A DNA stretch of 64,000 nt from an uncultured bacterium (GTDB lineage: Bacteria; Krumholzibacteriota; Krumholzibacteriia; JACNKJ01). The translations under genes were made by a program, and so were the position numbers. The notes below the pieces were generated by a model that saw nothing but the letters and a program-made list of their open reading frames with translations, made no database searches and was not told the DNA's origin. The stretch spans positions 4,830-68,829 of the forward strand of contig CAZVHI010000003.1 of assembly GCA_964627205.1 (NCBI GenBank). The letters are read 5' to 3'. This document shows positions 34,779-63,804 of this stretch, piece after piece (position 1 is the stretch's first letter; every line of letters begins with the position of its first letter).

Positions 34779-34796
34779 CGGACCCGAGCACGGAGG

Positions 34797-36218
34797 ATGA
34801 GAAGCATGAAGAGAATCCTGCCGGCACTGGCCGTCCTAGCCCTGATCGCAGCCGGAATCCACGGCTGCACCAAGGAGCGCGACAGCAATCCCTTCGGCAC
34901 GGGGAACGGCGACGGCGGCGAGGTGGACTGCCTCGCCTGCCACGGGGACGAGGAAATGCTGCGCGAGCTCTTGCCCGTGGAGGAAGGCCGCGCCGCGGTC
35001 TACACCAGGGGGGATGGCTGAGGCGGCGAGGTTCCCCCGCTGGAAGCGTGGGAGAAGGTCTACATCGGCGGCGCCAACGGGAACGCCTTCCTGAACGACG
35101 AGCGTCACGGCCCCGGCGCCCTGAGCTGCCTGAACTGCCACGGGAGCGAGAACACGGTCGGCGACTACGGCGAGCAGGTCGACATCCACGAGGGCGTGGT
35201 GAACGACCCCAGCGCCATCGGCGCCTGCGACGACTGCCACTCGTCGATCGCGGCCGCCACCGCGAACAGCCTGCACACGAACCTCTGGGGCGAGAGGAAG
35301 CTCATCGAGCAACGCGGTCAGTGCAACATCGCCGACTACGAGGACGGCTTCAACGCCAAGTGCAACGGCTGCCACACCACCTGCGGCCAGTGCCACATCA
35401 GCCGGCCCAACAGCGTGGCCGGCGGCTTCGTCAGCGCGCACAAGTTCCGCCCGACGCCCCACATGACCGACCAGTGCACGGCCTGCCACGGCAGCCGCGT
35501 CGGCATCGACTACCTTGGCGAGGCGGGCGGCGGCCTCGAAGGGAACGCGCCCGACGTGCACCGCAACCTGGGCTACCGCTGCGAGTACTGCCACAGCGCC
35601 GAGGAGATCCACGGCGACGGCCAGAGCACGAACGCCTCCGGCCACTACGAGCACCGCTACGAGGTGGCTACCATGCCCCGCTGCGAGGACTGTCACGGCG
35701 ACCAGCAGGGCGGGAACGACTACCATGGCGCCACGCACTGGGGCGCGCTCCAGTGCCAGGCCTGCCACTCGCAGCCCTACAAGAACTGCAGCAACTGCCA
35801 CCTGGAGACAGCCTGGGCGCGGGGCTTCACCATCGATCCCAGCGTCGCGATGCTCAAGATTGGCCTGAACACCCAGCCCGAGCTGCGCGACTACGAGTAC
35901 ACGATCGTGCGCCACGTGCCCGTCGCGCACGACACCTACGAGGCCTGGGGCCTGACGCTGCCGGCCTACGACGACATCCCGAGCTGGAAGTACGCCTCCC
36001 CGCACAACATCCAGCGCTGGACGGCCCAGACCGACACCACCGGCATGGCGGTGGGCGACGTCACCTGCGCCACGGCCTGCCACGGCAGCGGCAACGGCAC
36101 CGACAGCTTCTTCCTGCGGGAGGTCGACCTCTACGAGGAGGACGGGACGACGCCCCTGCCAGACTACGGGGCCAATCTGCCATACGTCGTGGCGGACGAC
36201 TGGCCGCCGGAGTTCTGA
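34797..36218 (+). CDS. Lipoprotein multiheme cytochrome c (about 11 CxxCH/CxxxCH motifs) with one in-frame TGA at 35019-35021; either a selenocysteine recoding site or a nonsense mutation
   Basis: Signal peptide with lipobox LIAAGIHGC and the first CxxCH (CLACH) precede the TGA. The same frame stays open through CLNCH and CDDCH into the ORF-track ORF 35196-36218 (whose GTG start is internal). No ATG/GTG/TTG start exists between the TGA and the CLNCH heme motif, and the downstream part has no signal peptide of its own. Confidence 0.55.
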
Positions 36219-36331
36219 TCGCTTTGCGGCCCGGCGACGGGTCGCGGGTCTGCGGCTGCGCTAGTAAGCGGACCCGAACGTCGATGTGAACGAGAAGGGC
36301 CCGGGAAGGGCCTAACAAAGGAGAGAAAGCG

Positions 36332-38215: not shown

Positions 38216-38331
38216 GAAGTCCGATCCCCGGCCTCGCGCCGGCGATCGTGGTTTAGGATTTGGCTATAGCTGTCGACGGAAGAAGGGGGGCTCTGCCCCC
38301 CTTCTCTCCGGCACAAGGATAGGGTGCAAGA

Positions 38332-40314: not shown

Positions 40315-40335
40315 CGGGCCGCTCGAGGGTCTACG

Positions 40336-40378
40336 AAAAACCGGGTTCGGCCAGCGTGGCCGAGCCCGGTTTTTCTTC
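40336..40378. terminator. Bidirectional rho-independent terminator between convergent cytochrome genes
   Basis: aaaaa-ccgggttcggcc-agcgt-ggccgagcccgg-ttttt: a 12-bp stem with one G-U pair, flanked by an A-run and a T-run. Confidence 0.65.
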
Positions 40379-40396
40379 GCCTGTCAAGAGCGGAGC

Positions 40397-40993: not shown

Positions 40994-41061
40994 CACTTGC
41001 AGTCCTTTCTTCTCGAGTTCTCCCGCTCTCCCCGCGGGTCGCTTGCCCCGCCCGTCCCGTC

Positions 41062-43060: not shown

Positions 43061-43171
43061 TGCCCCCTTCGCTTATCCAGGACCAGGATTATGGCAACAA
43101 TATAAGCCCGGTCGACGGCAGGTCCAGGGATTTCGAACACATTGAGTGAACAGGACTTACCACCGCGCCAC

Positions 43172-44047
43172 TCAGGATGCGGACGCCGCGACGCGGTTCT
43201 CCAGGGTGCCGATGCCCTCGATGCTCAGCGTCATCAGATCGCCCGGCCGCAGGAAGACCGGCGGCTCGCGGAAGACCCCCACGCCGCCCGGGGTGCCGGT
43301 GCTGATCACGTCGCCGGGCTCGAGGGTCATCGCGCGAGAGATGTACTCCACGAGAAAGGGTAGGTCGAAGATCAGTTCGCGCGTGTTGCTGCGCTGGCGC
43401 AGCTCGCCGTTGACCCGACACTCCAGCGCGAGCGCGTGTGGATCGGGGATCTCGTCGCGCGTTACGAGCCAGGGGCCCATTGGCCCGAAGGTCTCGAAGC
43501 CCTTGGCGCGCAGCCACTGGCGTTCGTTACGCTGGGCCTGGCGTCCCGAGACGTCGTTCAGGATCGTGTAGCCGAGCACGTAGTCGTAGGCTTCCGCGGC
43601 GGGCACCTTGCGCGCGCGGCGCGAGATCACGAAGGCCAGCTCCACCTCGTAGTCCACCTCGGGCTCATCCTCAGGCAGCACGATCTCCTCCCCGTGGCCG
43701 ACGAGCGCGCTGGGCACCTTGGGAAAGAGCAGGGGCTTTCCCGGCAGGGGACGATTCTGCTCCTCCGCGTGGTCGCGGTAGTTGAGCCCCAGGCAGATCA
43801 CCTTGCTGGGATCGGGGATCGGCGGCGCGAGGCGCTGCGCATTCAGCTCCACGACATCCCCGGCCCCGCCATCCGCGCGGGCCGCAGCAAGGACCTCCTC
43901 GAGCCGGCCGTCCTCCAGGATCCGCCGCCAGGAGCCCGGGGCCCCCGGCAGGGAGGCCGTCAGGTCCAGCGCGCTCCGGTCGTCCAGCATGATGCCCGGT
44001 CGCTCCCGGTAGCGCTCTCCGTAGCTGATCAGCCTCATCGCCATTCC
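43172..44047 (-). CDS. Fumarylacetoacetate hydrolase (FAH) family protein
   Basis: Start at MAMRLISYGER. FAH-fold motifs KVICLGLNYRDHAEE, DYEVELAFVI and GDVISTGTPGGVG. Confidence 0.8.
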   Translation of the reverse strand, partial: GMAMRLISYGERYRERPGIMLDDRSALDLTASLPGAPGSWRRILEDGRLEEVLAAARADGGAGDVVELNAQRLAPPIPDPSKVICLGLNYRDHAEEQNRPLPGKPLLFPKVPSALVGHGEEIVLPEDEPEVDYEVELAFVISRRARKVPAAEAYDYVLGYTILNDVSGRQAQRNERQWLRAKGFETFGPMGPWLVTRDEIPDPHALALECRVNGELRQRSNTRELIFDLPFLVEYISRAMTLEPGDVISTGTPGGVGVFREPPVFLRPGDLMTLSIEGIGTLENRVAASAS

Positions 44048-44211
44048 CTTCCAGTGGCTCTTTGCAGGGATGAAACAGTCAAGTTGCGCCGCATTGCGGC
44101 CGATTTCACATAGGGACGCCCATGTGTTAGAATAGCACTTCGGTTGAGTCGAACGCCCGTTGCTGCAGATTCGCGCACCTGGGTATGGGACAGCATCCGA
44201 CAACGGGAGCC

Positions 44212-44301
44212 ATGATGGGTCTGCGTAACATCCAATCCGTGCTGGGCGCGATCGGCCTGCTCATCTTCCTGCTCTTCCTGGCAATGGTCATCAAGACCTA
44301 G
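44212..44301 (+). CDS. Possible small hydrophobic peptide (29 aa)
   Basis: MMGLRNIQSVLGAIGLLIFLLFLAMVIKT, a single TM-like helix, in the 160-nt gap between two minus-strand genes. Below the ORF-track length cutoff. Confidence 0.2.
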   Translation: MMGLRNIQSVLGAIGLLIFLLFLAMVIKT

Positions 44302-44364
44302 GGCAGTTCCCCCCACCTTTCCACTTCAGTGTCCACGGGATCGGGCCGGAAGCCTGGCATGCTG

Positions 44365-45411
44365 CTAAAGCTTGAACTGCCCCTCCTCGCAGTCCTCGAT
44401 CAGGGCGGCCAGAAGATCGATGGAGGCCTGGATATCCGTCGGGTGCAGCATCTCGATCACAGAGTGCACGTAACGCGTGGGCACGCTGATGCAACCCGCC
44501 GCCGCGCCGCCGCCGGCGCGCTGGATGGCGGCCGTGTCCGTGCCACCGCGGGGCAGCACCTCCATCTGCCAGGGGATCTTCCGCTTCTCGCAGGTCTCGC
44601 GCATGAAGTCCACGAGCTTCCAGTTCGGCACGACGCTGCTGTCGTAGGCCTTGATGGCCGTACCCTTGCCCATCTCGCTGATGAACTGGTGGGGCTCGGT
44701 GAAGGGCACGTCGTTGGCGAGGGTCACGTCGAGCGCCACACCCACGTGCGGATCGATGTTGCGCGCGGCCACGGTCGCGCCGCGGATGCCGATCTCCTCC
44801 TGCGCGCTGCCCACGGCGTAGACATCCATCTTGTTGGCCTTCGCCTTGCGCAGGCCCTCGATCATGACGAAGACCCCCACGCGGTCGTCGAAGCTCTTGC
44901 CGTTGATCATCTCTCCTAGCTCGACGATCTCGCGCTCGCGCGTGACCACGTCCCCCACGCGCACGAGCTCCTTCACCTTCTTCACCGGCATGCCGAGGTC
45001 GATGTAGAAGTCCTCGATCTTGAGCGGCTTCTTGCGGTCTTCCTCGCTCATGATGTGGATGGGCTTGCTGCCCATCACTCCCAGCAGGTCCTCGCGCCCA
45101 TGCACGATGACGCGCTGGGCCGTCAGCGTCTTGGGATCGAAGCCGCCTAGCGGGACGAAGTGCAGGAAGCCCTTCTCGCCGATGTGGCTGACCATGAAGG
45201 AGATCTCGTCCATGTGCCCGCTGATCATCATGCGCCCGCCCTGGTTGCCCTTCTTCCGGGCGACGACGTTGCCGATCGCATCGACGGACACCTCGTCGCA
45301 GATGGGCTCCAGTTCGCGGATCACGATCTCGCGCACGCGCTCCTCGCGGCCGGGGGCACCGGCCGTCTCGCAGAGCTCCTTCAGAAGCGGCAGGTTGATG
45401 GGCATGAGCAC
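44365..45411 (-). CDS. M42-family metallo-aminopeptidase (FrvX/YsdC/glutamyl aminopeptidase-like)
   Basis: Motifs ISGHMDEISFMV, DDRVGVFVMIE and GGTDTAAIQ typical of peptidase family M42. Confidence 0.8.
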   Translation of the reverse strand: MLMPINLPLLKELCETAGAPGREERVREIVIRELEPICDEVSVDAIGNVVARKKGNQGGRMMISGHMDEISFMVSHIGEKGFLHFVPLGGFDPKTLTAQRVIVHGREDLLGVMGSKPIHIMSEEDRKKPLKIEDFYIDLGMPVKKVKELVRVGDVVTREREIVELGEMINGKSFDDRVGVFVMIEGLRKAKANKMDVYAVGSAQEEIGIRGATVAARNIDPHVGVALDVTLANDVPFTEPHQFISEMGKGTAIKAYDSSVVPNWKLVDFMRETCEKRKIPWQMEVLPRGGTDTAAIQRAGGGAAAGCISVPTRYVHSVIEMLHPTDIQASIDLLAALIEDCEEGQFKL

Positions 45412-47703: not shown

Positions 47704-50700
47704 CTACTTCGCGCCCACCTTCGTCACTCCGATGGTCTCGTAGACCGACATCTTGCCCTCGGTGTCCCAGACCAGGACGCCGATGCGGTGATCGCCGTCC
47801 TCCCAGCCGTTGATGTTGAAGGTGGTCATGAAGTAGCCGTCGTACTGGCCGCCGACCTCGGGATCCCACGCGATGTCGAAGGGCGGGTCGGCCGGCATCG
47901 GCCAGCCGTAGTCGTCGATGTAGAACTCCACGTAGTCGATCTCGGTGCAGTGCCAGTCGGAGGGGTTCACGACGATGTCGATCACGGACTGCTCGTCGGC
48001 GTTGAGCTCGTCACCCTGCTGCGGGGTGATCCAGTCCTCGGGAGCCATGAAGGGTCCCTCGCCGTCGACGATGTTGATCGTGTGCGTCACCTGCGCCGTG
48101 TTGCCCTCGGTGTCCTGCACCCAGACCGTGGCTTCCAGGATGGTCCCGGCCGCCAGGCACTCGGTGGAGAGCATGTAGTCGAAGCCCTCCAAGACTTCCG
48201 GAGGCGCCGCGTCGTTCACCGGGTTCGGATAGTTCGAAACGAAGACCTGGCTCAGGAGCACCGGCGGAATCCCGGTGACGTCGACCACCTCGAAGGTGCC
48301 GTCGGTCCAGTACCAGATGTCGCTCACGTCGAAGCTGAACTCGATCTCCGTGCCGCCCTCGTCGCTGAGGTCGGCGGGCAGGAAGTCGGTGATATCGGGC
48401 GGGTCGTCGCCGTAGATGTGCAGCTCGTTGTCGGTCGAGCTGATCCCGCACTCGTCCTCGATGGCGTACTGGACGCAGAGGTCACCCACGCCGTAGTCCT
48501 CGGTGTGGATGATCACCGGGATGTTGTCCGGGTTGTCCTCCTCCCAGGGCATCACGCAACCCCAATCCCAGTAGTAGTTCGAGATGAGGTCGCCGTCGTT
48601 GGAGAAGCTGCCCTGATAGGTGACGTCGGTCCCGAACAGCACCCAGGCTTCCGGGCCGCCACTGACGTTGGTCCAGAAGGCCAGATCCCATGGCACGTCG
48701 TTCTTCGTCACGCAGATGCTGCCGTCGAAGCCGACCTCGTAGGAGTTGCCGTTGGGCTGCGCGAGGTCCCAGACCCTGGCGCCGAAGCAGAACTCCGTAC
48801 CCGCGGGATAGATCATCGGGTCGTAGCTCCACATGTAGAACGCTTCGCCGCCGATGATCGAGTTGTCCGTGCCGACCAGAGTGTAGCCCCCGCCGTCGAT
48901 GGAGACGTAGAAGTCCACGCGGTCGAGATTGCCATCACCGTAGTTGTCCGCGATGCCGTCGACCATGAGCCCCAGTGGCGAGCTGATGCAGGTCGTGCCG
49001 TCAGGCGGTCCGACCCAGCCCATCGTCGGCGGTGTGTTGTCGATGTAGATGTCGGAGGTGTCGAAGGCGCCCTCGCCGATGTTGCCGGGCGTGGTGCCGT
49101 CGCCGGTGTACTCGTCCTCCACCGTCACCCCGATGGTGTAGACACCCTCGCTGGCGTAGGCGTGGGTGGCCGCGAAGACGTCCTCGCCGAGGTACTCCGT
49201 CCCCGTGCCGTCATCCCAGTCGACCCAGATGTAGATGTGCTCGTTGTCGTCCGAGATGTAAGGCCCGAAGTCCACCACCGCCTGGTAGGGGCTCGGCTGG
49301 AACACACCGTAGTCGCCCGGCAGGTTCACCACCGGCGCGTCCGACTTGTAGACGATGAAGGTATCCGACCCGGTCAGGCCGCCGAGGTCGTAGGCACGGG
49401 CCTCGATCTCCACGAGACCGCCGGGGTAGCCGGTGAAATCGATGTCGACCGGGAAGTTGGGCTGGGTCCAGGACTCGCCCATCTTCACGCCGCCGACGTA
49501 GTACTCCACCTTCTCGACCTCGGGCATCGTGCCGCGGTCGTAGGTGCCGGCCGGATCCACCTCGAAGGGCTCGAGGCCGGTCAGCACGTCGCCCGGACGC
49601 GGCACCAGGAAGAGCACGTCGGGCGTCGTCACGTCCTCGATCTCCACGTAGACGGAGGTGGTCCGCTCCAGGTCCGTGTTGTCCCTCACGAGGAGAGTGA
49701 CCCAGTAGCCGCCGTAGCCGTCGCCGGAGGCGAAGTAGTCCCAGTCCACCGGATCCGGATCGGTCGTGTCCAGATCGTAGGAGCCGTCGCCGTTGAAGTC
49801 CCACCGATAGAGGTCGATGGCGCCGCCCGCGCCGCCGTTCTCGTCGTCGTGGGACGCGAAGGCGGAGAAGGACAGCTGCAGGGACGTCTCGTCGGTCCAG
49901 TCGCCGTTCACCGGCTCCGGATCGATCTCCGCGTGGGGCGGATCGCTCTTGTAGACGTTGATCGTCACGAGCGGGAAGGACATGTTCGGCGGCGGTACCG
50001 TGAAGTCGTAGGCGATGGCGGTCATCGAGTACGGGCCGCTGTCCATGCCGTCCCAGTCGAAGTCGAAGCCGTGGACGACCGCGTTGTCCCACGGATCGGG
50101 GTTCGTCCAGCTCAGGGTCTCCGAGAAGCTCCCGCCGTCCTCGATGACCAGCTCCAGCATGTCCAGGATGCCGGCGTCGCCGTCGTGCTCGTCGATGGCG
50201 TCGACGATGTAGTCCATGTTCGCGCCGTACTGGGCGCCCCAGCCCTCGATGTCGAGCGCCAGATCCATGGGCTCGCCGTCATCGGCCTCCAGGCTGTTGA
50301 CCACGGGGTTCGTGGTGTCGGCGATGGAAACGCGGCAGACCGCCTCGTCGGTGAAGCCCGCGCTGTTCTCCACGGTCACGCGGCAGTCGTACATGCCGAT
50401 CGCGTAGGTGTTGGTCGCCGTGGGAAGGGTCGTGGTCTCGTCGATCACGCCGTTGTCGTCGAAGTCCCAGTGGTAGAAGTCGATCTGGTCGCAGTCGTCG
50501 TAAGCCGTCACCGTGAATGTGATGTCGCTCGGGTTGGTCTCGCCCGCATAGCGGTCGGAGCCGAACTCCGTGCCGTAGGGAGGCCCGCCGAGCTTGGTCA
50601 CGAGGATCTGGTTCACGCCGCCGGCGCTGGTGTTCCCGTTCACGTCAGTGACCGTGGCCCAGAGGTAGTACTCCTGGCAGTCCCAGCCGGCCGTGTTCCA

Positions 50701-53700
50701 GATGAAGCACCAGCCGTGCTCCCACTCGTCGTCCGCGTACAGGGTCTCGATGACCGTGCCGGCCGCGTAGAAGGTGATGTAGTCGACCTCGGGGCCGCTG
50801 TCGCGGTCGATGATCGGGCCGATCACACAGATCTCGGTGGTGAGCTGGAACTCGTCGGGAGTGGCCTTGATCTCCACCGCGTCCGGTGCAGTGCAGTCGG
50901 AGATCTCTACCACCACCGGGTCGCTCCAGGCGATGCGGCCGGTCGCGTCGGTGCCGATGAGCCGCGCCGAGTAGAAGCCGTACTCGGGGAAGTGCCAGAC
51001 CCAGGGCAGCTCCGGCATGTTCTCGATCGACTCCTCCGGGAGCTCGTCCGCGTCCACCCAGTTGGGATCGCCGAGACCCGTGAAGGGACCGGAGAAGCTC
51101 CAGCCGTAGCCGAACTCCGCGACGCCGTTGTCGTCGACGATCGACCAGCCGTCGAAGGCGACCGGGATGCCGCCGTTGACGTAGTCGTAGGGCGCGCAGT
51201 CGTTCGTGTAGGTGATGTCCGGCAGGGTCACGCAGGGCAGGTCGCTTTTCACGACCTCATCACTCGCCTGGGTCCAGTTACCGGCCACGTCGTAGATGCG
51301 GTAGTAGATCTCCCAACCCGCGGCCGAATCGACCCAGTTCTCGCCGCAGTACGGCTCGTAGTCGAAGGGCTCGACGCCGTCGATCTGCCAGACGTAGGGG
51401 CTCGACGTGTGGGAGAAGTCCCCGAACTCGCCATTTGCCCAGCCATAGTAAGTGAGCGTGCCGAAGTCGAGGTCCGAATAGCAGGCCCATCCCATCCAGT
51501 CCTCGGCGGCGTGGATCACGTCGGCCGTCCCGCTGACCAGGTGGGTCCCGGGGTAGCCCTCGAAGTCCACCACGTCGAAGTCGGTGATGACGGGCGCGTC
51601 GTTCTCCATCGTCAGCGTCCAGGTCTGCATGACGTAGGGCAGCTGGTAACCGGTGTCGGTCGTCTCGCGGACGCGAACGGCCAGCGTGTAGTCCACGCAC
51701 CACTCGTCGTAGTAGTCGAGCCACACGTTCTCGCCCGTCTCGTCCACCGAGAAGCTGCCGCTGTACTCGAGGTCCCACTCCACCAGGTAGCTGCTGGGCG
51801 TCGGGTTGCCGCCCCAGACGTTGTCGTCGGTGTAGTTCAGGCTGAAGTTGGGCTCGAGCTCGTTGGCCCAGGCGTGCTCGCCCACCGCGAAGCCGCGATC
51901 GGGCTGTCCGCCGATGTGGCGCGTGATGCCGGTGATGACCGGCAGGTCGGACTTGTAGATCCGGCGCGTCGCCATCGGGCCGTTGTTGCCCGAGTTGTCG
52001 GTGGGCAGGGCCAGGAGATCGTAGTAGTCGCCGGTCGCCGGCAGGTCCTCGCCCTCGAAGTTGCAGGTCCAGGCCGCGCCGTCGGCGTCCGTGCAGATCT
52101 CGCCGGTCGCGCCGCCGTTGACCTGGTCGTAGCTGAAGGCCACCTGCGCGATCGCGGGGAACCAGTTGTCACGGTCGGAGCCGGACACGGCGAGGGCCAC
52201 AGGCACGTTGTGGTCGCCGATCACCGAGTCGACCGCCGGGGCCGTGAACCAGATATCCGGGCCGATCACGTCTTCGATGAAGATGTCCTGACAGCCGGAA
52301 CCCACGATGTCGTAGATGTCCCGGACGTCGACGCAGACCTGGTAGTCCCCGTAGCCGAGCGTGAAGTCGAAGTCGACCATGTTGTAGGAGTCGCCCTCGT
52401 ACCACACGCCCTGCTCGAGCTCGAGGCCGCCGGTCGTGTAGACCGTGGCCGCGGGATCGGTGGGGCAGGTCCACATGAAGTCCAGCGGCGCCTGCTGCTC
52501 GTGGTTGTCGTCCCAGGACTCGTGGGCGTCGATCCGGACGATCCATTCCTCCGGATCGAGCACGGTGTAGGGACCAAAGAAGGGCACCGGCGCGCAGGTC
52601 TTGATGAAGTCGACCAGCGAGCTCAGGTCCGTCTGTCCGTTGGACAGGTAGGCCTTGGCGTAGATGCGAAGCTCGCCGCCCTCCATGTCGGTGATGTCGT
52701 AGGCCACGCTCCAGCCGCCGGCCTCGCTCGTATCCTCGCCGAAGTAGGTCTCGTCACCGGCGAAGAAGAACTGCACCTTGTCGACGGTGATGTCGCGCTG
52801 GGCGATGGCCGCCTTGGGGTCCTCGCTGCGCGTGGGCGGCAGGAACTCGACGGTGGCCGTGAAGTCCACGGGGCCGCAGAGCAGCTCGTCCGGCGCGGGC
52901 GTGGTCACTGTGACGAGGATGTCCGCGAAGCAGTCCACGATGAAGGGCACCGCGGCGCTGTTGTAGCTGGCCTCGTCGGAGAGGTAGGCCACCGCGTGCA
53001 CGTTGTGGCCGCCCTCGGGCATCTGCGCGGCGCAGGGATCGTACTGGAAGGTCCACTCGGGGCCCTCGTAGTCGATGCCGAAGGGGGCGGTCTCGGAGTC
53101 GAAGTAGAACTCGACCCGCTCGACGTCGGGCAGCTCGCGCGTGTCGAAGGTCACGCTCGCGGTGAAGATGAAGCTGCCGCTGATGTCATGGTTCTCGATG
53201 GGCGCGATGATCGCCACGACCGGCTCCGGACAACTGTAGGCGATGTCAGTGAGCTCGTCGTTGCCGACGTTGCCGCACTGGTCCGTGGCCGCCGCGCCGA
53301 TGGTGTAGTCGCCATCGCCGTCGAACCAGGCCGCGTCGACGACGAAGGAGTAGGTGTTCTCGCCGAGATCCGTGTAGTCGCAGGACACCGAGTCGGCATC
53401 GACGAAGAGGACGAGGCTCGCGAGAGTGTTCGCTTCCACCACCTCGACGAGCAGTTCGTCGCCGGAGCAGAAGAGCTGATCACCCTCGGGCGGCGTGATC
53501 GCCACCACCGGCGCCGTCTCGTCGTTCCAGACATCCACCGTGAACACGGGGTTGTCCGCGTCGCCGTGGTTGCCGGCCGTGTCGAAGGCATCGATCGTGA
53601 TCTCGACCCCCAGAGCCGCGGCGATCGGGTCGATGCCGGTGAAGGTAAAGTCGTATGCGCTGTCGCTCGTCCCGGGCTCGTCGACCGCAACCTCGACGCC

Positions 53701-53940
53701 GTCCACGTAGAGGACGACCTTGTCGATGTTGGATGCTTCGTCGGTCGCCGTGCCTGTGATCTCGAGCGGCTCACAGAGCAGGTCGCCTTGCCTGGCGGGC
53801 GAGTAGAAGTTGGTCTGCACGTTGCTGATCACCGGGGGGGTGTCGTCCGTCGGCCCAGTGACCTCGTCGTCACTGCACCCCCAGACCAGCAGAGCTACGG
53901 CCAGGATGGTGACAAAGCCGAAAAGTAGTTTTCGTGCCAT
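47704..53940 (-). CDS. Giant (about 2078 aa) cell-surface lipoprotein with multiple PKD/Ig-like repeats
   Basis: Start at MARKLLFGFVTILAVALLVWGCSDD (signal peptide with Cys lipobox). PKD-like signatures YHWDFDDNGVIDETTTL...YDCRVTVEN, YRWDFNGDGSYD and WVDWDDGTGTEY...YTIGVTVED. Extremely Asp/Gly/Thr/Tyr-rich. Antisense ORFs of more than 2000 aa on the + strand are GC artefacts. Confidence 0.7.
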   Translation of the reverse strand: MARKLLFGFVTILAVALLVWGCSDDEVTGPTDDTPPVISNVQTNFYSPARQGDLLCEPLEITGTATDEASNIDKVVLYVDGVEVAVDEPGTSDSAYDFTFTGIDPIAAALGVEITIDAFDTAGNHGDADNPVFTVDVWNDETAPVVAITPPEGDQLFCSGDELLVEVVEANTLASLVLFVDADSVSCDYTDLGENTYSFVVDAAWFDGDGDYTIGAAATDQCGNVGNDELTDIAYSCPEPVVAIIAPIENHDISGSFIFTASVTFDTRELPDVERVEFYFDSETAPFGIDYEGPEWTFQYDPCAAQMPEGGHNVHAVAYLSDEASYNSAAVPFIVDCFADILVTVTTPAPDELLCGPVDFTATVEFLPPTRSEDPKAAIAQRDITVDKVQFFFAGDETYFGEDTSEAGGWSVAYDITDMEGGELRIYAKAYLSNGQTDLSSLVDFIKTCAPVPFFGPYTVLDPEEWIVRIDAHESWDDNHEQQAPLDFMWTCPTDPAATVYTTGGLELEQGVWYEGDSYNMVDFDFTLGYGDYQVCVDVRDIYDIVGSGCQDIFIEDVIGPDIWFTAPAVDSVIGDHNVPVALAVSGSDRDNWFPAIAQVAFSYDQVNGGATGEICTDADGAAWTCNFEGEDLPATGDYYDLLALPTDNSGNNGPMATRRIYKSDLPVITGITRHIGGQPDRGFAVGEHAWANELEPNFSLNYTDDNVWGGNPTPSSYLVEWDLEYSGSFSVDETGENVWLDYYDEWCVDYTLAVRVRETTDTGYQLPYVMQTWTLTMENDAPVITDFDVVDFEGYPGTHLVSGTADVIHAAEDWMGWACYSDLDFGTLTYYGWANGEFGDFSHTSSPYVWQIDGVEPFDYEPYCGENWVDSAAGWEIYYRIYDVAGNWTQASDEVVKSDLPCVTLPDITYTNDCAPYDYVNGGIPVAFDGWSIVDDNGVAEFGYGWSFSGPFTGLGDPNWVDADELPEESIENMPELPWVWHFPEYGFYSARLIGTDATGRIAWSDPVVVEISDCTAPDAVEIKATPDEFQLTTEICVIGPIIDRDSGPEVDYITFYAAGTVIETLYADDEWEHGWCFIWNTAGWDCQEYYLWATVTDVNGNTSAGGVNQILVTKLGGPPYGTEFGSDRYAGETNPSDITFTVTAYDDCDQIDFYHWDFDDNGVIDETTTLPTATNTYAIGMYDCRVTVENSAGFTDEAVCRVSIADTTNPVVNSLEADDGEPMDLALDIEGWGAQYGANMDYIVDAIDEHDGDAGILDMLELVIEDGGSFSETLSWTNPDPWDNAVVHGFDFDWDGMDSGPYSMTAIAYDFTVPPPNMSFPLVTINVYKSDPPHAEIDPEPVNGDWTDETSLQLSFSAFASHDDENGGAGGAIDLYRWDFNGDGSYDLDTTDPDPVDWDYFASGDGYGGYWVTLLVRDNTDLERTTSVYVEIEDVTTPDVLFLVPRPGDVLTGLEPFEVDPAGTYDRGTMPEVEKVEYYVGGVKMGESWTQPNFPVDIDFTGYPGGLVEIEARAYDLGGLTGSDTFIVYKSDAPVVNLPGDYGVFQPSPYQAVVDFGPYISDDNEHIYIWVDWDDGTGTEYLGEDVFAATHAYASEGVYTIGVTVEDEYTGDGTTPGNIGEGAFDTSDIYIDNTPPTMGWVGPPDGTTCISSPLGLMVDGIADNYGDGNLDRVDFYVSIDGGGYTLVGTDNSIIGGEAFYMWSYDPMIYPAGTEFCFGARVWDLAQPNGNSYEVGFDGSICVTKNDVPWDLAFWTNVSGGPEAWVLFGTDVTYQGSFSNDGDLISNYYWDWGCVMPWEEDNPDNIPVIIHTEDYGVGDLCVQYAIEDECGISSTDNELHIYGDDPPDITDFLPADLSDEGGTEIEFSFDVSDIWYWTDGTFEVVDVTGIPPVLLSQVFVSNYPNPVNDAAPPEVLEGFDYMLSTECLAAGTILEATVWVQDTEGNTAQVTHTINIVDGEGPFMAPEDWITPQQGDELNADEQSVIDIVVNPSDWHCTEIDYVEFYIDDYGWPMPADPPFDIAWDPEVGGQYDGYFMTTFNINGWEDGDHRIGVLVWDTEGKMSVYETIGVTKVGAK

Positions 53941-54402
53941 CTTTTCTCTCCTTACCACAGTCCTTGAGCTTCGGTAGCTCTTAGTGGAACTCCGGCAACT
54001 TTCCCTCACCCGTCCGGGAGAAGGTGTAATTGTATTCCCGTGCAACTCGTTATCTGCGGGCTCTAAACCCGCGTATCTCCTCGCCACATACCGGCATGGC
54101 AGAAGGCGCCACCCGCCGAGTGGACGCTAACCTGGACAGCAAACTCCTTTGAAAAACCTTTGTCAAGGAGTTTAGGACCCGGCGGTTGCCATTCATGATC
54201 CCGCTGGGATCGGGCTCTCCGCCCTCTCGGGTCGTTCCCGTTTCTAGCGGATGAAATGAATTCAAGCAACTGTTTTCGTCCCTAGTTAAGCCGGCGTAAA
54301 AGATGCGGAATACGCACTTGCTCCCCGCCGCGCTCAGGCGCTAAGTATGTCTCGTGGCGCCGAGTTCCCCGGCGTCGAATCCAAGCCCGGGAGCTGCGTC
54401 CG

Positions 54403-57223: not shown

Positions 57224-58714
57224 TCAGCGCAGGCGACCCTCCACGGCGACGCGTGCTGCGAATCCCCCGAAGACGAAGCGTTCCGGCGCCGGCCCCTCGC
57301 CGTCGTCGCCGCCCGCGCCGTCTTTGCCCGCGCTTCTCAGCGGCGCGTGCTGCGTCACCGCGGCGCGCAGGCGCCAGCCGCCCGGGAGTGGCGCGGCGAG
57401 ATCCAGATCGAGACGCAGGGCGCTGCGGGCCGGCAATGGCAGCTCCTCGTGATGTGCTTCCCAGTCGAAGATGAAGGGAGGCAGGATGGGAATCCGCTCC
57501 CGCCAGTCCACCGACCCGCCGCCGTCCAGCCAGAGGTGGCGCAGGGCGAAGCCCGCGCGCCAGCTCCCCGTACGGGCGAGCAGATCCCTGCCGTAGCCCG
57601 CCGACCAGATCCGCAGACGGTAGTGCAGGCCGTCCAGCGAGTAGCGGCTGTTGACGAAGATGTCCCAGAGCGAAAAGGGCCAGGGCTCGAACCAGCCGTC
57701 CTCCGCGCCGAGGCGGGTCTCCCGGTGCCCCAGCAGCGCGCGCCCGCCGCCGGCGAAGGGCGGCAGCGCGAGGGACAGGTCGAGGCGCTGCTCACGGAAG
57801 TCGAGGCGGGGCAGGCGCAGGTAGGCCGATCCGTCGGCGAACATGCCCAGGGCGAGGTAGCCGAAGTCGACACGCAGGTCGACGCGCAGCGGCACCGCCC
57901 CCGTTGCCCGCGCGTCGGTTCCTTCGCCGGCCTCGCGGGTGGGCGGCCAGCTCGCCGCGAAACCGTGGCGCAGGCCGTAGAGCTGGTTCCAGTCGTCCTC
58001 CTCGCCGGACTTGCCGGGCTCGCCGGCCGTCACCTCGCGGAGGAGGGCGCAGGCGGGTAGACACCGTGACACGGGGTCGAAGGAGCCGTGCAGGATCTCC
58101 CGGCGGAAGGGAAAGGGGAAGCGGTAACGCTTTCCGGAGAAGCTCTGATCGAGGGTCCAGCGCGAGCGCTCGAGGCCTGCGCCCACGCGGGCGAGGCCGA
58201 AGCCGAAGCGGCGGGACAGGGCCAGCGCTCCCTCCCAGCCGCGGGCGCGCCCGAGGGCCAGCGCGAGCGTCCACGGACCCTGGCGGCCGGCCGCGCCGAG
58301 GCGGAAGAAGTCCGCCTCCAGGTCGGCGAGCAGGGCGTCCGAATCGGAGTAGAGGTCCCGCTGGCGGAGCTCGCTGCGGGGCCGTCCCGTTTCGACCCGC
58401 AGCTCCAGGCCCCGCCAGGGGCCATGGGCCGAGGCCGTCAGGGAGTGGCGGCGGTAGTCCTGGCTGCGATCGGGTCCGCGGTCGCGCAGGAGGAGCTCGT
58501 GCTCGCCCGCGAGGCGGAAGCGCCAGACACCGTCAAGGCCTGGCTGCGGACAGGCCAGCTCGGAGGCGGCAGGCATGGCCGCCCGGCCCAGCAGCCAGGC
58601 CTCCCAGGGCAGAAAGGACCGAAGGGGCTCTCCCCGCGCGGGAGAAGCCCCTCCGGTGACGATCGCGATCAGCAGCGGGAGCGCGCGCCGCGTCGACAGG
58701 ATCCGTGCCCGCAT
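57224..58714 (-). CDS. Hypothetical secreted Arg/Trp-rich protein
   Basis: Signal peptide MRARILSTRRALPLLIAIVTGGASPARG. 496 aa. Starts 8 nt after the upstream lipoprotein gene. No recognisable domain. Confidence 0.45.
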   Translation of the reverse strand: MRARILSTRRALPLLIAIVTGGASPARGEPLRSFLPWEAWLLGRAAMPAASELACPQPGLDGVWRFRLAGEHELLLRDRGPDRSQDYRRHSLTASAHGPWRGLELRVETGRPRSELRQRDLYSDSDALLADLEADFFRLGAAGRQGPWTLALALGRARGWEGALALSRRFGFGLARVGAGLERSRWTLDQSFSGKRYRFPFPFRREILHGSFDPVSRCLPACALLREVTAGEPGKSGEEDDWNQLYGLRHGFAASWPPTREAGEGTDARATGAVPLRVDLRVDFGYLALGMFADGSAYLRLPRLDFREQRLDLSLALPPFAGGGRALLGHRETRLGAEDGWFEPWPFSLWDIFVNSRYSLDGLHYRLRIWSAGYGRDLLARTGSWRAGFALRHLWLDGGGSVDWRERIPILPPFIFDWEAHHEELPLPARSALRLDLDLAAPLPGGWRLRAAVTQHAPLRSAGKDGAGGDDGEGPAPERFVFGGFAARVAVEGRLR

Positions 58715-58721
58715 GGCGCTC

Positions 58722-60317
58722 CTAATACCCGAAGATGGCCTCCCAGTCCGCCCGCGTCATGCCGGGGAACAGCCCGCCCATCTCGTAGTCCTGGAAGTGG
58801 GGCATCACGAACTCGGGATCGATGGGAACGCCCTGCGGATCGGTGAGCTCGGCCGGCTCGACCGTCTGGTTCCATTCGAAGACCTCCACCCAGCCGATGT
58901 TCTCGAAGACCGCGTTGTAATCCGAGTCCTCCCAGTCGTAGTAGTAATAGGGCCAGGCGGGGTCGTTCGGGAAGGCCCCGTAACCGATCAGTTCCTCGTG
59001 GTGCCACTGCTCGTGGGGGAGCCACTGGTAGTAGGGCAGTTTCGTCTTCCAGTCCTGAATGGGGTCGTTGAAGAGCACGGACAGGTCCACCGTGAGCGTG
59101 ACCTGCTGCCCGTCGATCATCTCGTCGATGAAGTAGGGACCGCTGATCACCTCCTCGATCCAGGCGATCAGATCGTGGATGGTCTCCATCTCCTCGATGA
59201 AGCTCGGGCAGTCCTCGCAGTCGTCGATGTCGGCGTTCAGCTCGTCGATGTCGCCGATCTTGATGATGTCGTCGTCCTGGGGATCTCCCTCGGCCTCGAT
59301 GAAGTCGACGGCGTCTTCCATCTTGCCGAGCATGACCGCCAGGTCCACGGAGGCCAGGCCGAGCTGGGTCTCGCCGGAGTAGGGATCCGTGCGCAGGGTC
59401 AGGAACTCGCTGCCCGGCACGCTCTGGTACTGCAGCATCTCGAAGACGAGCATCTCGGTGGTGTTGTTCCAGACCCGGTAGACGCGCAGCGTGTCGCCCG
59501 ATGCATCGCCCGGCGCGATCTGGAAGCTGACGCCGTAGTCGTCCTCGAGCAGCTCGAGCCAGTCGTAAGTGCCGTCGGGGCCCTCGATGTCCAGGTTGTA
59601 GGCCGTCATGATCCGCAGCCCCGCGCGGAGCGCGCGCAGCATGCCGTCGAAGAAATAGAGCTCGCCGCGGTCGATTTCCATCTCGTGCTCCACTCCGCCT
59701 CCGTCGACGATCGTGACGACCGCGCCGAAGTCCGCGTCCGCCTCGGCGCTCTCCACGTGACCGATCGCCGAGGCAAGGGGAGGCAGGATGGACTCGATGA
59801 TCAGCTCCTGGAGGTAGGGAACGGTCAGGTTCGCGGGGAACTCCCTCGTCTGCTGGGCCAGCATGTACGGCGCTTCTGCGAGGATCAGGAGCTGCCGGCC
59901 GATCAGGCGGTTCCGGAAGGGGTTGATCCGGCCCTCGCCGCCGCCGCCCATGGCGTAGAGCTGGTCGACGATCTCCCAGAGGTCCTCGTCGTAGTTCAGC
60001 TCGCAGAAGTCCACGAGACCCAGGCCGAGATGGGAGAGCCCGTGACCGGTGTGCGCCGCCAGGACATCGTCGAAGCCGTCGCGGATCTCGTCGAATCGGA
60101 CCTGCTTGACATAGTCGAAGTCAGGCTCGCCCTCGCCGGGATCGAGAGCGTCCCCGATGTTGTGCAAGGTGTCGGCGAGAGCCTGGAACCAGTAGACGGC
60201 GGCGGAGTCGGCGTCCGTCACGCCGTTACCATTGTCGCCCTCGTCCAGGGCGTTCTCGCTGCAGCCCAGGAAAGCGGCGAGCAGCGCTGCAAGCGTGAAC
60301 ATGAGTAGCTTCTTCAT
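58722..60317 (-). CDS. Hypothetical acidic lipoprotein
   Basis: Lipobox LLAAFLGCSEN. 531 aa, Asp/Glu-rich. No recognisable domain. Confidence 0.5.
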   Translation of the reverse strand: MKKLLMFTLAALLAAFLGCSENALDEGDNGNGVTDADSAAVYWFQALADTLHNIGDALDPGEGEPDFDYVKQVRFDEIRDGFDDVLAAHTGHGLSHLGLGLVDFCELNYDEDLWEIVDQLYAMGGGGEGRINPFRNRLIGRQLLILAEAPYMLAQQTREFPANLTVPYLQELIIESILPPLASAIGHVESAEADADFGAVVTIVDGGGVEHEMEIDRGELYFFDGMLRALRAGLRIMTAYNLDIEGPDGTYDWLELLEDDYGVSFQIAPGDASGDTLRVYRVWNNTTEMLVFEMLQYQSVPGSEFLTLRTDPYSGETQLGLASVDLAVMLGKMEDAVDFIEAEGDPQDDDIIKIGDIDELNADIDDCEDCPSFIEEMETIHDLIAWIEEVISGPYFIDEMIDGQQVTLTVDLSVLFNDPIQDWKTKLPYYQWLPHEQWHHEELIGYGAFPNDPAWPYYYYDWEDSDYNAVFENIGWVEVFEWNQTVEPAELTDPQGVPIDPEFVMPHFQDYEMGGLFPGMTRADWEAIFGY

Positions 60318-60367: not shown

Positions 60368-61651
60368 TCAGCTGCTCGTCTTCATCCTTGCGATCAGAGC
60401 GTCCACCATCTCCTCGAAGGCCTGCTCGTCACCCGGCCGATAGCCGACCGTCTTGAACATGATCCGGCCCTGGTGGTCGACGAAGATGTTCATGGGGACG
60501 CCTTGCACGCCGAAGCGCTCGCCGGCGACGTCCTGGTCGTCCATCAGATGGGGCCAGACGTCGGCGCCGATGCTCTCCACGTACTCCCGCGACATCTCCG
60601 CGCGGTTCGTGGTTTCGATGCCGATGAGCGCGAAGTCCTGATCGCTGTACTTCTTCACCATCTCTACGAGATGGGGCATCTCGTGCTTGCAGTAGCTTCA
60701 GGTCGGGTGCCAGAAGTTGATCATCAGCACCTTGCCCCGGTAGTCCGAGAGACGGTGCGAGACGCCATCGAGGTCGGCCAGCGTGAAGTCGGGCGCGTCG
60801 GTCGCCCGCGTAAGCCGTCTTTCCCAGAGGCCGGCGCGATAGGCCTCCACGTCGCGGCCGGTCTTCGCGACCATGGTCTCGGCCTTGGTCTGCAGCCGGC
60901 TGTCGACGCGGAACTCGAGCTGCAGGCTGTAGAGGGCCAGGAGCTTGGGCTCCTCGCCCATCGCGAGGTAGACCTCCTCCAGGTGATGCGCCAGGTCGCC
61001 GTCCGGCTCGGCGAGTTCCTCCATGGCCGTCTCCAGGTGCAGCGAGGCCAGGTCGTAGCGGCCCAGCTTGAAGTTGCCCCAGCCCGCGGTGTCGAGGGCC
61101 ATGGCCTTGTAGATGCCCGGCTCGGCCGTCTTCGCGGCCCGCTCGGCCATCTGCGCGCCCAGCTCGGGATCCCAGCCACTCTCCTCGACGAGGTTCCAGG
61201 CGACGGCATTCAGTGCGTTCGATGCCTCCAGCCCAGAATCCCAGAACTCCTTCGCGAGCACCAGGGCGGCCTCCCTGTCCTCCTTCCCCGCGGCCTGGTC
61301 GAAGAGGACCTTGTAGAGCTCGCCCTTACCGTTTGCGCTCGGCTCGGTCGCGAGGGTCGCGCGCGCCCACGCGGCCGCCGCGTCCCCGTCCGCCTCGCTC
61401 TTCAGCTTCCAGAGCCCCGACAGGGCCGACCGGCGGTACTCGGACTCGGGGAAGTCGGCGAGGAAGGCCGAAAAGGCGGCCTCGCGCTCGGCCGCGTCCT
61501 CGAGGCCGTAGGCCGCGCTGATGGCCTCCATGTCGGCCGGGGTGGTCTCGGTCGTGGCCTGCTCCGCCTGGCCCGCCTCCTCGCCACCACCGCAACCCAG
61601 GATCGAGACGAGGAGAAGAAGCAGTGCGCTGATCGTGATTCCCGCTCTCAT
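60368..61651 (-). CDS. Lipoprotein with helical/TPR-like region and C-terminal TlpA/ResA-type thioredoxin domain; candidate selenoprotein with in-frame TGA (60698-60700) giving a UxxC active site
   Basis: Lipobox LLVSILGC. ORF-track ORFs 60698-61651 and 60368-60679 are in one frame separated only by TGA. Read through, the active site is VLMINFW-HPT-U-SY-C-KHEMPHLVEMVKKY, which aligns to the TlpA motif FWASWCGPCRxEMP with TGA at the first Cys. An 8-bp hairpin lies 13 nt downstream of the TGA. Confidence 0.6.
60666..60684 (-). other. Stem-loop immediately 3' of the in-frame UGA, a candidate bacterial SECIS-like element
   Basis: On the mRNA: acgagaug-ccc-caucucgu, an 8-bp perfect stem starting 13 nt after UGA. 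The apical loop lacks the canonical G/U, so it needs model-based verification. Confidence 0.3.
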
Positions 61652-61664: not shown

Positions 61665-62435
61665 CTAGTCGCCGCTGATGATGTCCTTGAGAATGTTGCC
61701 GCCCAGGCCGGCGATTCCCTTCCGCTCGCCCTGGGTGCCGCCGTGCTTGAGGCCGCTGGCGTGGATCACACGGTCGGCCAGGCGGCTGAAGGGCAGGGTC
61801 TGCAGGTAGACGGTGCCCGGCCCGCGCAACTGCGCGAAGAAGAACCCCTCGCCGCCGAAGAGGACGTTCCGGAAGCCGCCGATGAACTGGATGTCGTAGT
61901 CCACGCTCTCGTGGAAGGCCACCAGGCAGCCCGTGTCCACGCGGAGCGTCTCGTCGGGCTTCAGCTTGCGCTCGATCACGGTGCCGCCCGCGTGCACGAA
62001 GGCCAGGCCATCACCGCTGAGGCGCTGGAGGATGAAGCCCTCGCCGCCGAAGAGGCCCGCGCCGAGCTTCTTGGTGAACGCGATGGAGATGTCGATGCCG
62101 TAAGCGCTGCAGAGGTAGGCGTCCTTCTGGCAGAGGTAGTTGCCCCGGTCGGCGAGGTCCAGGGGGATGATCTTGCCGGGATAGGGCGCGGCGAAAGCCG
62201 CGGCGGCGCGGCGGCGGGCCTTGTTCTCGAAGGTGGTGATGAAGAAGCTCTCGCCCACGATGGCCCTCTTCAGGCCCTTGAGGAGTCCGCCCTGGGTGGA
62301 CGTATCCATCGTGATGCCGTCCTCGAGGTAGAGCATCGCGCCCGCCTCGGCGTGGACGGCCTCCTCGGGGTCCAGCGTGATCACCACGGCCTGCATGTCG
62401 TCGCCGCGGATCTCGTAGTCTACTTCGTGGACCAT
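61665..62435 (-). CDS. AIM24/TIGR00266-family protein (DUF124)
   Basis: Start at MVHEVDYEIRGDDMQAVVITL. Repeated GGEGF segments and overall pattern like the AIM24 family. About 256 aa. Confidence 0.6.
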   Translation of the reverse strand: MVHEVDYEIRGDDMQAVVITLDPEEAVHAEAGAMLYLEDGITMDTSTQGGLLKGLKRAIVGESFFITTFENKARRRAAAAFAAPYPGKIIPLDLADRGNYLCQKDAYLCSAYGIDISIAFTKKLGAGLFGGEGFILQRLSGDGLAFVHAGGTVIERKLKPDETLRVDTGCLVAFHESVDYDIQFIGGFRNVLFGGEGFFFAQLRGPGTVYLQTLPFSRLADRVIHASGLKHGGTQGERKGIAGLGGNILKDIISGD

Positions 62436-62526
62436 GACTGCTCCTTTTAGGGACCGGACTGGACGGCCTGCCGCTCGGGCGATGATAAGGCGTCTCTGCT
62501 TGCCAGCGCAATGCCTGCCGTCAGAG

Positions 62527-63804
62527 TCAGGCCCGCTGGCGCCCGACACGCCGGCTTCCCCAGCGGATCAGCTCGTACAGGCAGGCCCCCGCGAGGACGC
62601 AGAAGACGAGCTCGGACACAAAGCGATACCGGGCCTTGCCCCAGAACACGATCGCGTAGCAGACCCAGTTCATGATGACGAAGCCCGCGAGCCCGAGCCA
62701 GGGAACCCGCTCCCAGCGCCGAAGGAAGAGCAGGGAGAGGGCGACGAGGGGAAGCAGCCCCACGTAAAAGGGGGAGATCGTCCCGCGAAGCCGGGACTCC
62801 CCTCCCACGTCTCGACCGGGGAAGCGGCCGCTGGCAGGATCCTTCGGCGCCCGCGTGGCCCAGAAGATCGAATAGTGACCACCCGTGAAAAACAGCGCCC
62901 GCGTCCCCGTCAGGATGCCGGATGTCAGATCTCTCGCGCCGCTAGCCTTGATATGCTCCCAGCCCAGTGCATTCCCCGTCCGGTGCCTTTCCAGCTCGCC
63001 CAGTCCGGCCAGATCGCTTTCTGCAATCGGGTGCCAGCCGTAGCGATGCGCGTTATGGGCGTAGTAGAAGTTCACGCCCGAGCTGGTCGACAACCCGGCA
63101 CCAGGGCCGATGACCTGCTGGTTGCGCAGCGCCCAGGGAAGGACGAGCGCGGCCACGACGACGGTCAGGGCCAGCGGCGCGAGAAGCCGGTCCCTGGAAC
63201 GTCGAGCCGCCAGACTCGAGAGGATGAGGAGAGCGGCCCCGTAGAACAGACCATCGCCGCGAGTCAGGATCGCCAGGCCGAGGCAGGCTCCGCTCAGCAG
63301 GGCGCGGCTCACCGGCGAGCCGCGCCGACCCTGGAGCGTCAGCAAGCTGAGCAGCAGTAGAGGAACGAACAGATTCTCGGACACCAGGAGCGGCGAGAAG
63401 AAGACGAAGGTCGGGTTCAGGGCGCAGAGCGATGCGGCGATCAGGGCGGCTCGCTTCCCATCCGGTACGAGATTGATCGCGAGCAGGTAGACGAGGGGTA
63501 CGAAGGAGGTGGCGAGGAGAACGTTCACCAGGCCGAGCCAGAGATGGGAGTGGTGGACGAGGAGCAAGGCCGCCAGCAGGGCAGGGTAGGCGGGGAGTCG
63601 ATACGCCGTGGGCGTCGGGTCAGAGAAGCTACCGTCGGTCAGCAGGGACTCGGCCAGGCGGAGGTACTGGGCGCAATCGGCTACGGGCACGGGGTGGGAG
63701 TGCAGGAGCCACGCGATCCTGAGAACCAGGGCCACGACAATGATCGCGAGCAGAGGCAGCGCCCGGAGGAGAGTGCGACGCCACCTGCTGCTCGTGCTCA
63801 TCAA
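62527..63804 (-). CDS. Polytopic membrane glycosyltransferase-like protein (GT39/GT83 PMT/ArnT-like fold)
   Basis: 425 aa with about 10 TM helices. N-terminal region LRIAWLLHSHPVPVADCAQYLRLAESL resembles ArnT/PMT-type glycosyltransferases. Assignment tentative. Confidence 0.5.
   Translation of the reverse strand: MMSTSSRWRRTLLRALPLLAIIVVALVLRIAWLLHSHPVPVADCAQYLRLAESLLTDGSFSDPTPTAYRLPAYPALLAALLLVHHSHLWLGLVNVLLATSFVPLVYLLAINLVPDGKRAALIAASLCALNPTFVFFSPLLVSENLFVPLLLLSLLTLQGRRGSPVSRALLSGACLGLAILTRGDGLFYGAALLILSSLAARRSRDRLLAPLALTVVVAALVLPWALRNQQVIGPGAGLSTSSGVNFYYAHNAHRYGWHPIAESDLAGLGELERHRTGNALGWEHIKASGARDLTSGILTGTRALFFTGGHYSIFWATRAPKDPASGRFPGRDVGGESRLRGTISPFYVGLLPLVALSLLFLRRWERVPWLGLAGFVIMNWVCYAIVFWGKARYRFVSELVFCVLAGACLYELIRWGSRRVGRQRA

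Follow-up and report, generated by a model that had tools for sequence, protein, structure and literature searches.

A gene that is annotated in two pieces in an uncultured bacterium very probably encodes a single selenoprotein. The gene lies on the minus strand of a 64-kb stretch of DNA (64,000 nucleotides of contig CAZVHI010000003.1, assembly GCA_964627205.1, lineage Krumholzibacteriota); this whole stretch is called the window throughout. We find that positions 61651..60368 are best read as one gene for a lipid-anchored extracytoplasmic thiol:disulfide oxidoreductase resembling TlpA, ResA and DsbE. Its in-frame UGA would place selenocysteine (Sec, U) at the attacking site of the redox motif (U318-S-Y-C321).

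An in-frame UGA at a TlpA-like active site

The two open reading frames (ORFs) called at this locus share one frame. They run from 61651 to 60698 (317 amino acids) and from 60679 to 60368 (103 amino acids), with only the TGA at 60698-60700 between them. Translation of the minus strand from 61651 to 60368 through this TGA gives ...GKVLMINFWHPT*SYCKHEMPHLVEM..., and the 427-residue read-through product has ...YRGKVLMINFWHPT-[UGA]-SYCKHEMPHLVEMVKK... around the codon. The active site is then FWHPT-U-SY-C-KHEMP. The ATG at 60679, 18 nt after the TGA, encodes the Met of KHEMPHL.

The N-terminal fragment was found as an identical copy on 17 contigs from several independent metagenomes, which differ in both sample and assembler. 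Thus, the TGA is not a read error. A sequencing or assembly error has only its a-priori possibility to recommend it, and with TGA also present in all orthologs we regard its probability as negligible.

The UGA falls inside a thioredoxin-fold domain. Pfam profiles, searched with U replaced by C in the protein, matched above their cutoffs for AhpC-TSA (PF00578, 67.8 bits, cutoff 26), Redoxin (PF08534, 59.4 bits, cutoff 26.6) and Thioredoxin_8 (PF13905, 38.6 bits, cutoff 27); residue 318, the UGA codon, lies within the AhpC-TSA and Redoxin matches. A phmmer search of the PDB returned DsbE (3gl3, 1.6e-18), ResA (1st9/1su9, 9e-14) and TlpA (1jfu, 4e-12), as well as 2l5o and Etrx (2yp6). In the alignment with 3gl3, 'infwhptCsyCkhemp' stands opposite 'ldfwaswCgpCrqsfp', so that UGA occupies the place of the first Cys of CxxC, as it does in the alignments with 2l5o and 2yp6. 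Positions 318 and 321 are both invariant columns in an alignment with Cys-type TlpA-family proteins. The W-x-x-x-C-x-x-C pattern of the TlpA-like superfamily is present as FW-HPT-U-SY-C, with U for the first Cys.

Further active-site elements are encoded 3' of the UGA, namely the Glu of the C-x-x-E-x-P motif and the Pro of the GVPxN loop. ResA has a Glu at the matching place (CEPCKKEFP), which is reported to tune its active-site pKa. In 3gl3 and 2l5o, the loop that aligns with Pro386 and its neighbours is GxP[TS].

These results bear out most of the original prediction. It had read the TGA at 60698-60700 as U in FWHPT-U-SYC-KHEMP, and the translation agrees; it had placed that U at the first Cys of CxxC in a TlpA/ResA-type site, as do the alignments with the DsbE, ResA and TlpA structures. 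It had also taken the Met at 60679 for the internal Met of EMPHL, which it is in the read-through product, and the two ORFs for an artefact of gene calling. The latter view is upheld by the single frame and by the orthologs, since 31 of the 34 sequences have Phe, Tyr or Leu in place of this 'start' Met.

By its sequence, the window protein is a member of the TlpA-like superfamily that falls into none of the named orthologous groups. Its scores stay below the curated NCBIfam cutoffs for ResA (NF002854, 75.5 against 170 bits), TlpA (NF047696, 49.3 against 230) and DsbE (TIGR00385, 43.3 against 123), and it is therefore not an ortholog of these proteins.

The UGA is retained in every ortholog that we recovered. 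A protein search found four orthologs with 52-53% identity, which are annotated as proteins of ~317-321 amino acids ending in ...MINFWHPT. Their DNA continues with TGA-NNN-NNN-TGC and then with ~103-108 in-frame codons of redoxin sequence. Searching metagenomes for the DNA pattern NFWHPT-TGA-xx-Cys yielded 22 genuine loci. When the pattern was relaxed to TGN and applied to one genome per species (the window's own species was not among the genomes matched), it returned 15 genuine orthologs, with TGA in 15/15 and TGY at the Sec codon in 0/15. A search with the C-terminal fragment added a single relative (P0051/L060). Overall, there are ~34 distinct ortholog sequences, all with TGA, from Candidatus Eisenbacteria, Candidatus Krumholzibacteriota, unnamed metagenome-assembled genomes and metagenomes. 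Full-length orthologs have a signal sequence and lipobox and ~290-330 residues ahead of U. The DNA pattern itself required the codon of the second Cys; conservation of this residue is therefore independent evidence only in the orthologs from the protein search, which were not selected for it.

The original prediction had also raised the matter of Cys-containing orthologs in relatives. The protein search found no close one: after five truncated proteins, its matches were of the CGPC type at ≤35% identity (e.g., P0006).

The coding sequence is conserved to the same degree on both sides of the UGA. In gapped protein comparisons, used because the orthologs other than L060 contain an indel, identity to the window protein is 28-54% upstream and 26-55% downstream, and the ~105 codons 3' of the UGA match the sequence 5' of it in conservation. 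An ungapped codon comparison is valid for L060 alone; there, differences from the window 3' of the UGA number 21, 11 and 35 at codon positions 1, 2 and 3. The similar identities together with the third-position bias indicate that both halves evolve as one protein.

It is thus very improbable that the TGA is a true stop, leaving either a broken gene or a separate TPR lipoprotein followed by a small redoxin fragment. Every gene caller makes this split, and the window does offer an ATG shortly after the TGA. However, the split would cut through the thioredoxin fold, separating strand beta-1 from the CxxC helix, and neither half would have a complete active site or fold. The TGA is conserved across two candidate phyla with intact downstream frames, no start codon is conserved behind it, and the covarying hairpin described below also argues against termination.

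Hairpins downstream of the UGA

In most members of the family, the UGA is closely followed by a covarying hairpin. With the U of UGA numbered 1, 31 of the 34 distinct sequences have a 7-bp stem formed by positions 14-20 and 24-30 and closed by a GUA or GUU (GUW) loop; the stem begins 10 nt, and the loop 17 nt, 3' of the UGA. In this register 93% of cells are paired, against 31-71% in registers slid by 1-3 nt. Two-sided changes occur in 24 cells, compared with 5.6 ± 3.6 in shuffled alignments. The main covariation joins Val GUG or Ala GCG codons in the 5' arm to synonymous Pro/Ser NCA or NCG codons in the 3' arm (U-A 15 times, C-G 14 times). For example, a change from Val GUG to Ala GCG is offset by a synonymous change from Pro CCA to CCG. 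Since the changes in the 5' arm are matched by synonymous changes in the 3' arm, protein constraint alone does not account for the covariation of the stem.

Several observations weigh against Sec insertion in the window or restrict what can be said of the product. First, the window clade, which comprises the window, L005/L020 and L060 and carries the sequence C-K-[HV]-E-M-P-H-L-V-E-M, lacks the family hairpin, which its R to K and F/Y to M substitutions destroy. Two overlapping hairpins, A and B (Table 1), are present in its place. They share the CAUCUC arm and are mutually exclusive, with B starting 10 nt further on. Second, neither A nor B shows covariation among the three lineages of the clade, and the folding energy of the region does not stand out (z = -1.34). 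Third, bacterial selenocysteine insertion sequence (SECIS) elements are described as commonly having a G in their apical loop (PMC1088965), and the more stable hairpin A has a CCC loop without G. Fourth, no curated ResA, TlpA or DsbE cutoff is reached that would point to a precise physiological substrate.

Fifth, selA, selB, selD and tRNA-Sec were not seen in the 64-kb window or in the fetched loci. ARAGORN detected no tRNA in the window and 31 related loci, and an Rfam scan of the whole window gave no match, hence no tRNA-Sec or other RNA family. Reading the translations of the window ORFs by eye revealed no SelA-, SelB- or SelD-like protein, with nine proteins scanned against profiles. A literature search on Sec in Eisenbacteria or Krumholzibacteriota found nothing relevant.

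Hairpin B is probably the SECIS element of the window, judging from the three lineages of its clade. RNAalifold chooses it as the consensus structure for the clade, and its GUA or GUU loop, which begins 30 nt after the UGA, is of the GUW type seen in the family. It keeps 6 bp in both L005 (-6.2 kcal/mol) and L060 (-5.7 kcal/mol). Its sequence uses codons that are rare in window genes (His CAU, 15%; Val GUA, 2%), and synonymous variation between the three lineages is confined to the third base of its loop.

We consider it less probable, though a serious contender, that hairpin A rather than B is the functional Sec insertion element. Hairpin A is the most stable local hairpin and forms part of the minimum free energy structure. 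The loop of A starts at a distance of 21 nt from the UGA, close to the spacing in the family consensus and to the 20 nt of a second UGA gene described below. Perfect stems of this kind are also rare: Watson-Crick hairpins of ≥8 bp within 45 nt occur at ~1% of window positions, and after 0/17 of the other TGA-terminated window ORFs. Yet the loops of the family consensus (GUW) and of the second gene (GGA) both start with G. Moreover, hairpin A is perfect in the window only. It shrinks to 5 bp (+0.1 kcal/mol) with a CCC loop in both L005 and L060, each of which still has the UGA, and it leaves the choice of the rare Val codon GUA unexplained.

The original prediction of a perfect 8-bp stem-loop 13 nt 3' of the UGA is thus correct as to hairpin A, and a stem-loop does lie at SECIS distance. 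The role assigned to it is less secure: A may not be functional, given its CCC loop and its decay in both sister lineages where B is kept, and the overlapping 7-bp hairpin B had been overlooked.

These patterns could reflect turnover of the SECIS element within one family. Here, the covarying GUW hairpin would have been lost, and the window clade would use either a GUW hairpin shifted 13 nt downstream or a non-canonical CCC hairpin, in a family of Sec-only, TPR-tethered periplasmic reductases restricted to Eisenbacteria and Krumholzibacteriota. We put this scenario forward tentatively, as a possibility that falls a little short of being probable. If true, it would be a natural case of SECIS replacement inside coding sequence. 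The family in any case forms a compact natural data set on the variability of SECIS position and loop sequence in bacteria.

A second UGA gene and the case for Sec decoding

When the window was scanned for TGA codons with coding-like composition on either side, exactly two genes emerged: the TlpA-like gene and a multiheme cytochrome c gene. The latter is a second candidate selenoprotein gene (34797..36218, plus strand; TGA at 35019-35021) that would encode a lipoprotein with ten CxxCH motifs. Its layout is a lipoprotein signal, one CxxCH, ...YTRGDG-[TGA]-GGEVPPLEAWEK..., and nine further CxxCH.

The cytochrome UGA is likewise conserved together with a hairpin. The TGA is kept in 6/6 lineages checked, and in each of them a hairpin of 8 bp closed by GGA is present (~35034-35052 in the window). 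Compensatory changes occur at two stem pairs. Most of 1,753 cytochrome homologs are annotated with an N-terminal truncation near the UGA point. At the UGA column, the few homologs of full length show W, W, Q, P or a gap, and no Cys. We considered whether W in these homologs might be a mistranslated TGA and rejected this for P0119, where the codon is a genuine TGG. This second gene with a conserved UGA and hairpin supports Sec decoding in the organism.

The cytochrome gene had no match to a curated family. MccSep/ExtKL is a recently characterised selenoenzyme that reduces polysulfide and has five hemes, with Sec at position 325 (PMC13510729). This identity is not supported for the cytochrome, which has no NF040886 or PDB sequence match, has ten CxxCH rather than five, and carries its UGA near the N terminus rather than at 325 (PMC13510729). 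The cytochrome gene may be more novel than the TlpA-like gene.

The cytochrome gene stands in a conserved cluster (34131-41706). A TetR regulator (34131-34778) precedes it. Downstream are genes for a rhodanese-repeat protein of four domains (36332-38215), for a fusion of a multiheme cytochrome with a formate-dehydrogenase-gamma-like cytochrome b (38332-40314) and, on the minus strand, for a further multiheme cytochrome (41062-41706). The rhodanese-repeat gene comes directly after the cytochrome gene in every related locus, and the TetR gene is usually upstream. This constant pairing suggests that the cluster is a sulfur or selenium redox module.

A wider stretch of the window (28532-45411) has a gene order in common with L066, a contig labelled Krumholzibacteria_JACNKJ01. 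The order comprises a tricorn-type protease, a poly(A) polymerase/CCA-adding-like enzyme, TetR, the cytochrome and rhodanese, and later FAA hydrolase and peptidase M42. Such synteny suggests an origin of the window in a Krumholzibacteria-like organism.

It is very improbable that UGA specifies one of the standard residues Trp, Cys or Gly instead, through a suppressor tRNA or an altered code. Such a reading would accord with the failure to see Sec machinery in the window, and with the genuine TGG (Trp) at the aligned codon of some full-length homologs of the cytochrome. Nevertheless, TGA is the stop of 16 of the ~38 well-supported window ORFs, including the TlpA-like gene's own terminator. It is thus an ordinary stop in the window, and a reassigned code is excluded. 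In the TlpA-like family, UGA aligns with the redox-active Cys and not with the Trp of WCxxC, and the want of TGY among the orthologs would be unexpected if Cys were inserted. In addition, selection acts on a structured element that lies at SECIS distance and has G as the first base of its loop.

Architecture, relatives and significance

The predicted protein combines a lipoprotein signal, an all-helical N-terminal domain and the C-terminal redox domain (Table 1). The signal ends with ...VSILG before C20, and a lipobox-like ...[AG][GA]C is also found in the full-length orthologs. The AlphaFold2 model of the N-terminal fragment has a mean predicted local distance difference test score (pLDDT) of 86, with values >90 across residues 40-280. 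The best Foldseek matches of this model in the PDB are TPR proteins (template modelling score 0.4-0.5, E = 1.7e-5), and Pfam TPR matches in the domain are faint. The modelled fold, a stacked helix-turn-helix superhelix, is TPR-like.

Table 1. Predicted features of the TlpA-like selenoprotein gene and candidate hairpins in the window
Feature	Positions	Strand	Details	Basis
Candidate selenoprotein gene, complete	60368..61651	(-)	427 codons including Sec318; own terminal stop TGA at 60368-60370	Translation; Pfam domain over internal TGA
Predicted lipoprotein signal peptide	61592..61651	(-)	MRAGITISALLLLLVSILG followed by C; lipobox Cys20	Inspection of sequence only
TPR-like all-helical solenoid	60806..61537	(-)	Residues ~39-282, 14 helices	AlphaFold2 model, Foldseek
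TlpA/ResA-like thioredoxin-fold (AhpC-TSA/Redoxin) domain	60419..60799	(-)	Residues 285-411	Pfam, PDB matches
In-frame UGA, predicted Sec318	60698..60700	(-)	Site of the N-terminal nucleophilic Cys of CxxC	Translation, alignments
Cys321	60689..60691	(-)	Second (resolving) Cys of UxxC; matches second Cys of CxxC in PDB homologs	Invariant alignment column
Glu324	60680..60682	(-)	C-x-x-E-[MFY]-P motif	Glu in all 34 ortholog sequences
Pro386	60494..60496	(-)	G-V-P-x-N loop (GVPMN), cis-Pro loop of thioredoxin folds	Invariant column
Hairpin A, candidate	60666..60684	(-)	ACGAGAUG-CCC-CAUCUCGU; perfect 8 bp, starts 13 nt 3' of UGA	-9.6 kcal/mol
Hairpin B, candidate	60658..60674	(-)	CCAUCUC-GUA-GAGAUGG; 7 bp	-9.0 kcal/mol; centroid structure

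A mechanism can be proposed from this layout. A SelB-type factor carrying Sec-tRNA(Sec) would bind the mRNA hairpin just 3' of the UGA, probably the one with the GUA loop and less probably the one with the CCC loop, and Sec would be inserted without termination. The mature protein would then be exported and lipidated at Cys20. The chemistry of CxxC in ResA, TlpA and CcmG, and that of UxxC selenoproteins, is established; applied by inference to U318 and Cys321, it would have the U318 selenolate attack substrate disulfides and Cys321 resolve the selenenylsulfide intermediate. Re-reduction may proceed through a membrane electron shuttle of the CcdA/DsbD type, and the TPR-like solenoid at the N terminus probably serves to bring in protein partners or substrates.

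Parts of the neighbourhood are conserved among related loci. A gene of the AIM24/TIGR00266 family lies just upstream of the TlpA-like gene (61665..62549, minus strand) and is syntenic in orthologous loci. Two family-less minus-strand genes lie downstream, encoding a 531-residue lipoprotein (58722..60317) and a 496-residue protein (57224..58714). Both have counterparts near the L001 ortholog, with 42% and 46% identity, respectively.

Other window genes were noted from their ORF translations. Tandem paralogs of ~305-313 amino acids on the minus strand (5151-6092 and 6247-7164) have near-identical central and C-terminal stretches, for example ...LYVRRIAGLNAVEEAIGRSTELG.KVM.IPGIG.VGEVETLS.LAVLKHVAKHTAEYGTPLE..., and lie within a run of small membrane-protein genes (2866-7164). 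A tryptophan cluster on the minus strand (17953-26818), recognized by eye, contains trpA-like, trpB-like, fused trpC/trpF-like, trpD-like and DAHP-synthase-like genes. The composition-based gene map gave no clear ORF assignment at 23.8-25.8 kb and 26.8-28.5 kb. A 2127-residue acidic, repeat-rich secreted protein is encoded at 47704-54087 (minus strand), and two plus-strand genes (33-872 and 9062-10672) encode proteins with a C-terminal sorting sequence like those of FlgD-Ig and the type IX secretion system (...GIYF...LLK). The acidic protein and the sorting sequences would fit a member of the FCB group.

TlpA-like UxxC selenoproteins have been catalogued since 2005, and the Global Ocean Sampling (GOS) data contain several thioredoxin-like and peroxiredoxin-like UxxC families (PMC2398784). 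The window gene thus adds to a known class. It shares with the catalogued TlpA-like selenoproteins the thioredoxin fold, predicted Sec for the first Cys of CxxC, a candidate SECIS-type hairpin 3' of the UGA, and widespread Cys homologs. It differs from them in its WHPT-U motif, its ~250-residue TPR-like N-terminal domain, its lipoprotein anchor and its occurrence in the Sec form only, in genomes of the Eisenbacteria and Krumholzibacteriota type, a distinction drawn from their descriptions.

Two NCBIfam models describe proteins with U at the first active-site position, as in the window protein: NF041054 ('ResA-like WAxxUGC motif-containing protein') and NF053656 ('TUGYCR motif thioredoxin fold (seleno)protein'). 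The window protein matches both weakly, with scores far short of the cutoffs (60.9 against 300 bits and 25.2 against 100 bits), and its orthologs fare not much better (best E = 2.3e-18 and 1.3e-5, respectively). Its motif, WHPT-U-xx-C-[RK], also differs from WAxxUGC and TUGYCR.

Cys enzymes provide further points of comparison. Bacillus subtilis ResA, Bradyrhizobium TlpA and CcmG/DsbE have the same fold, site of the redox motif, C-x-x-E-x-P motif, cis-Pro loop and extracytoplasmic membrane tethering. In contrast, the window protein has Sec for the nucleophilic Cys, HPT for A-[ST]-W, and a lipoprotein anchor with a TPR domain. The layout of lipoprotein signal, TPR and C-terminal TlpA-like domain recurs in the P0006-type metagenomic protein (628 amino acids), at 27% identity over 66% of the query. 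That protein is longer, distantly related and of the Cys form (WATWCGPC). Taken together, the WHPT-U motif, the TPR lipoprotein layout, the apparent Sec-only state and the lineage probably mark a distinct subfamily.

The general picture of bacterial selenoproteins is unchanged by this family, which adds to it a lipid-anchored, TPR-equipped TlpA-like reductase seen only in the Sec form. All public assemblies with this gene wrongly divide it into a 317-residue 'TPR protein' and a 103-residue orphan, and ~30 orthologs are treated likewise. Selenoproteins are therefore undercounted in the annotation of these candidate phyla. Together with the cytochrome candidate, the sequence evidence indicates that organisms of the Krumholzibacteria and Eisenbacteria type decode Sec and use it outside the cytoplasm.

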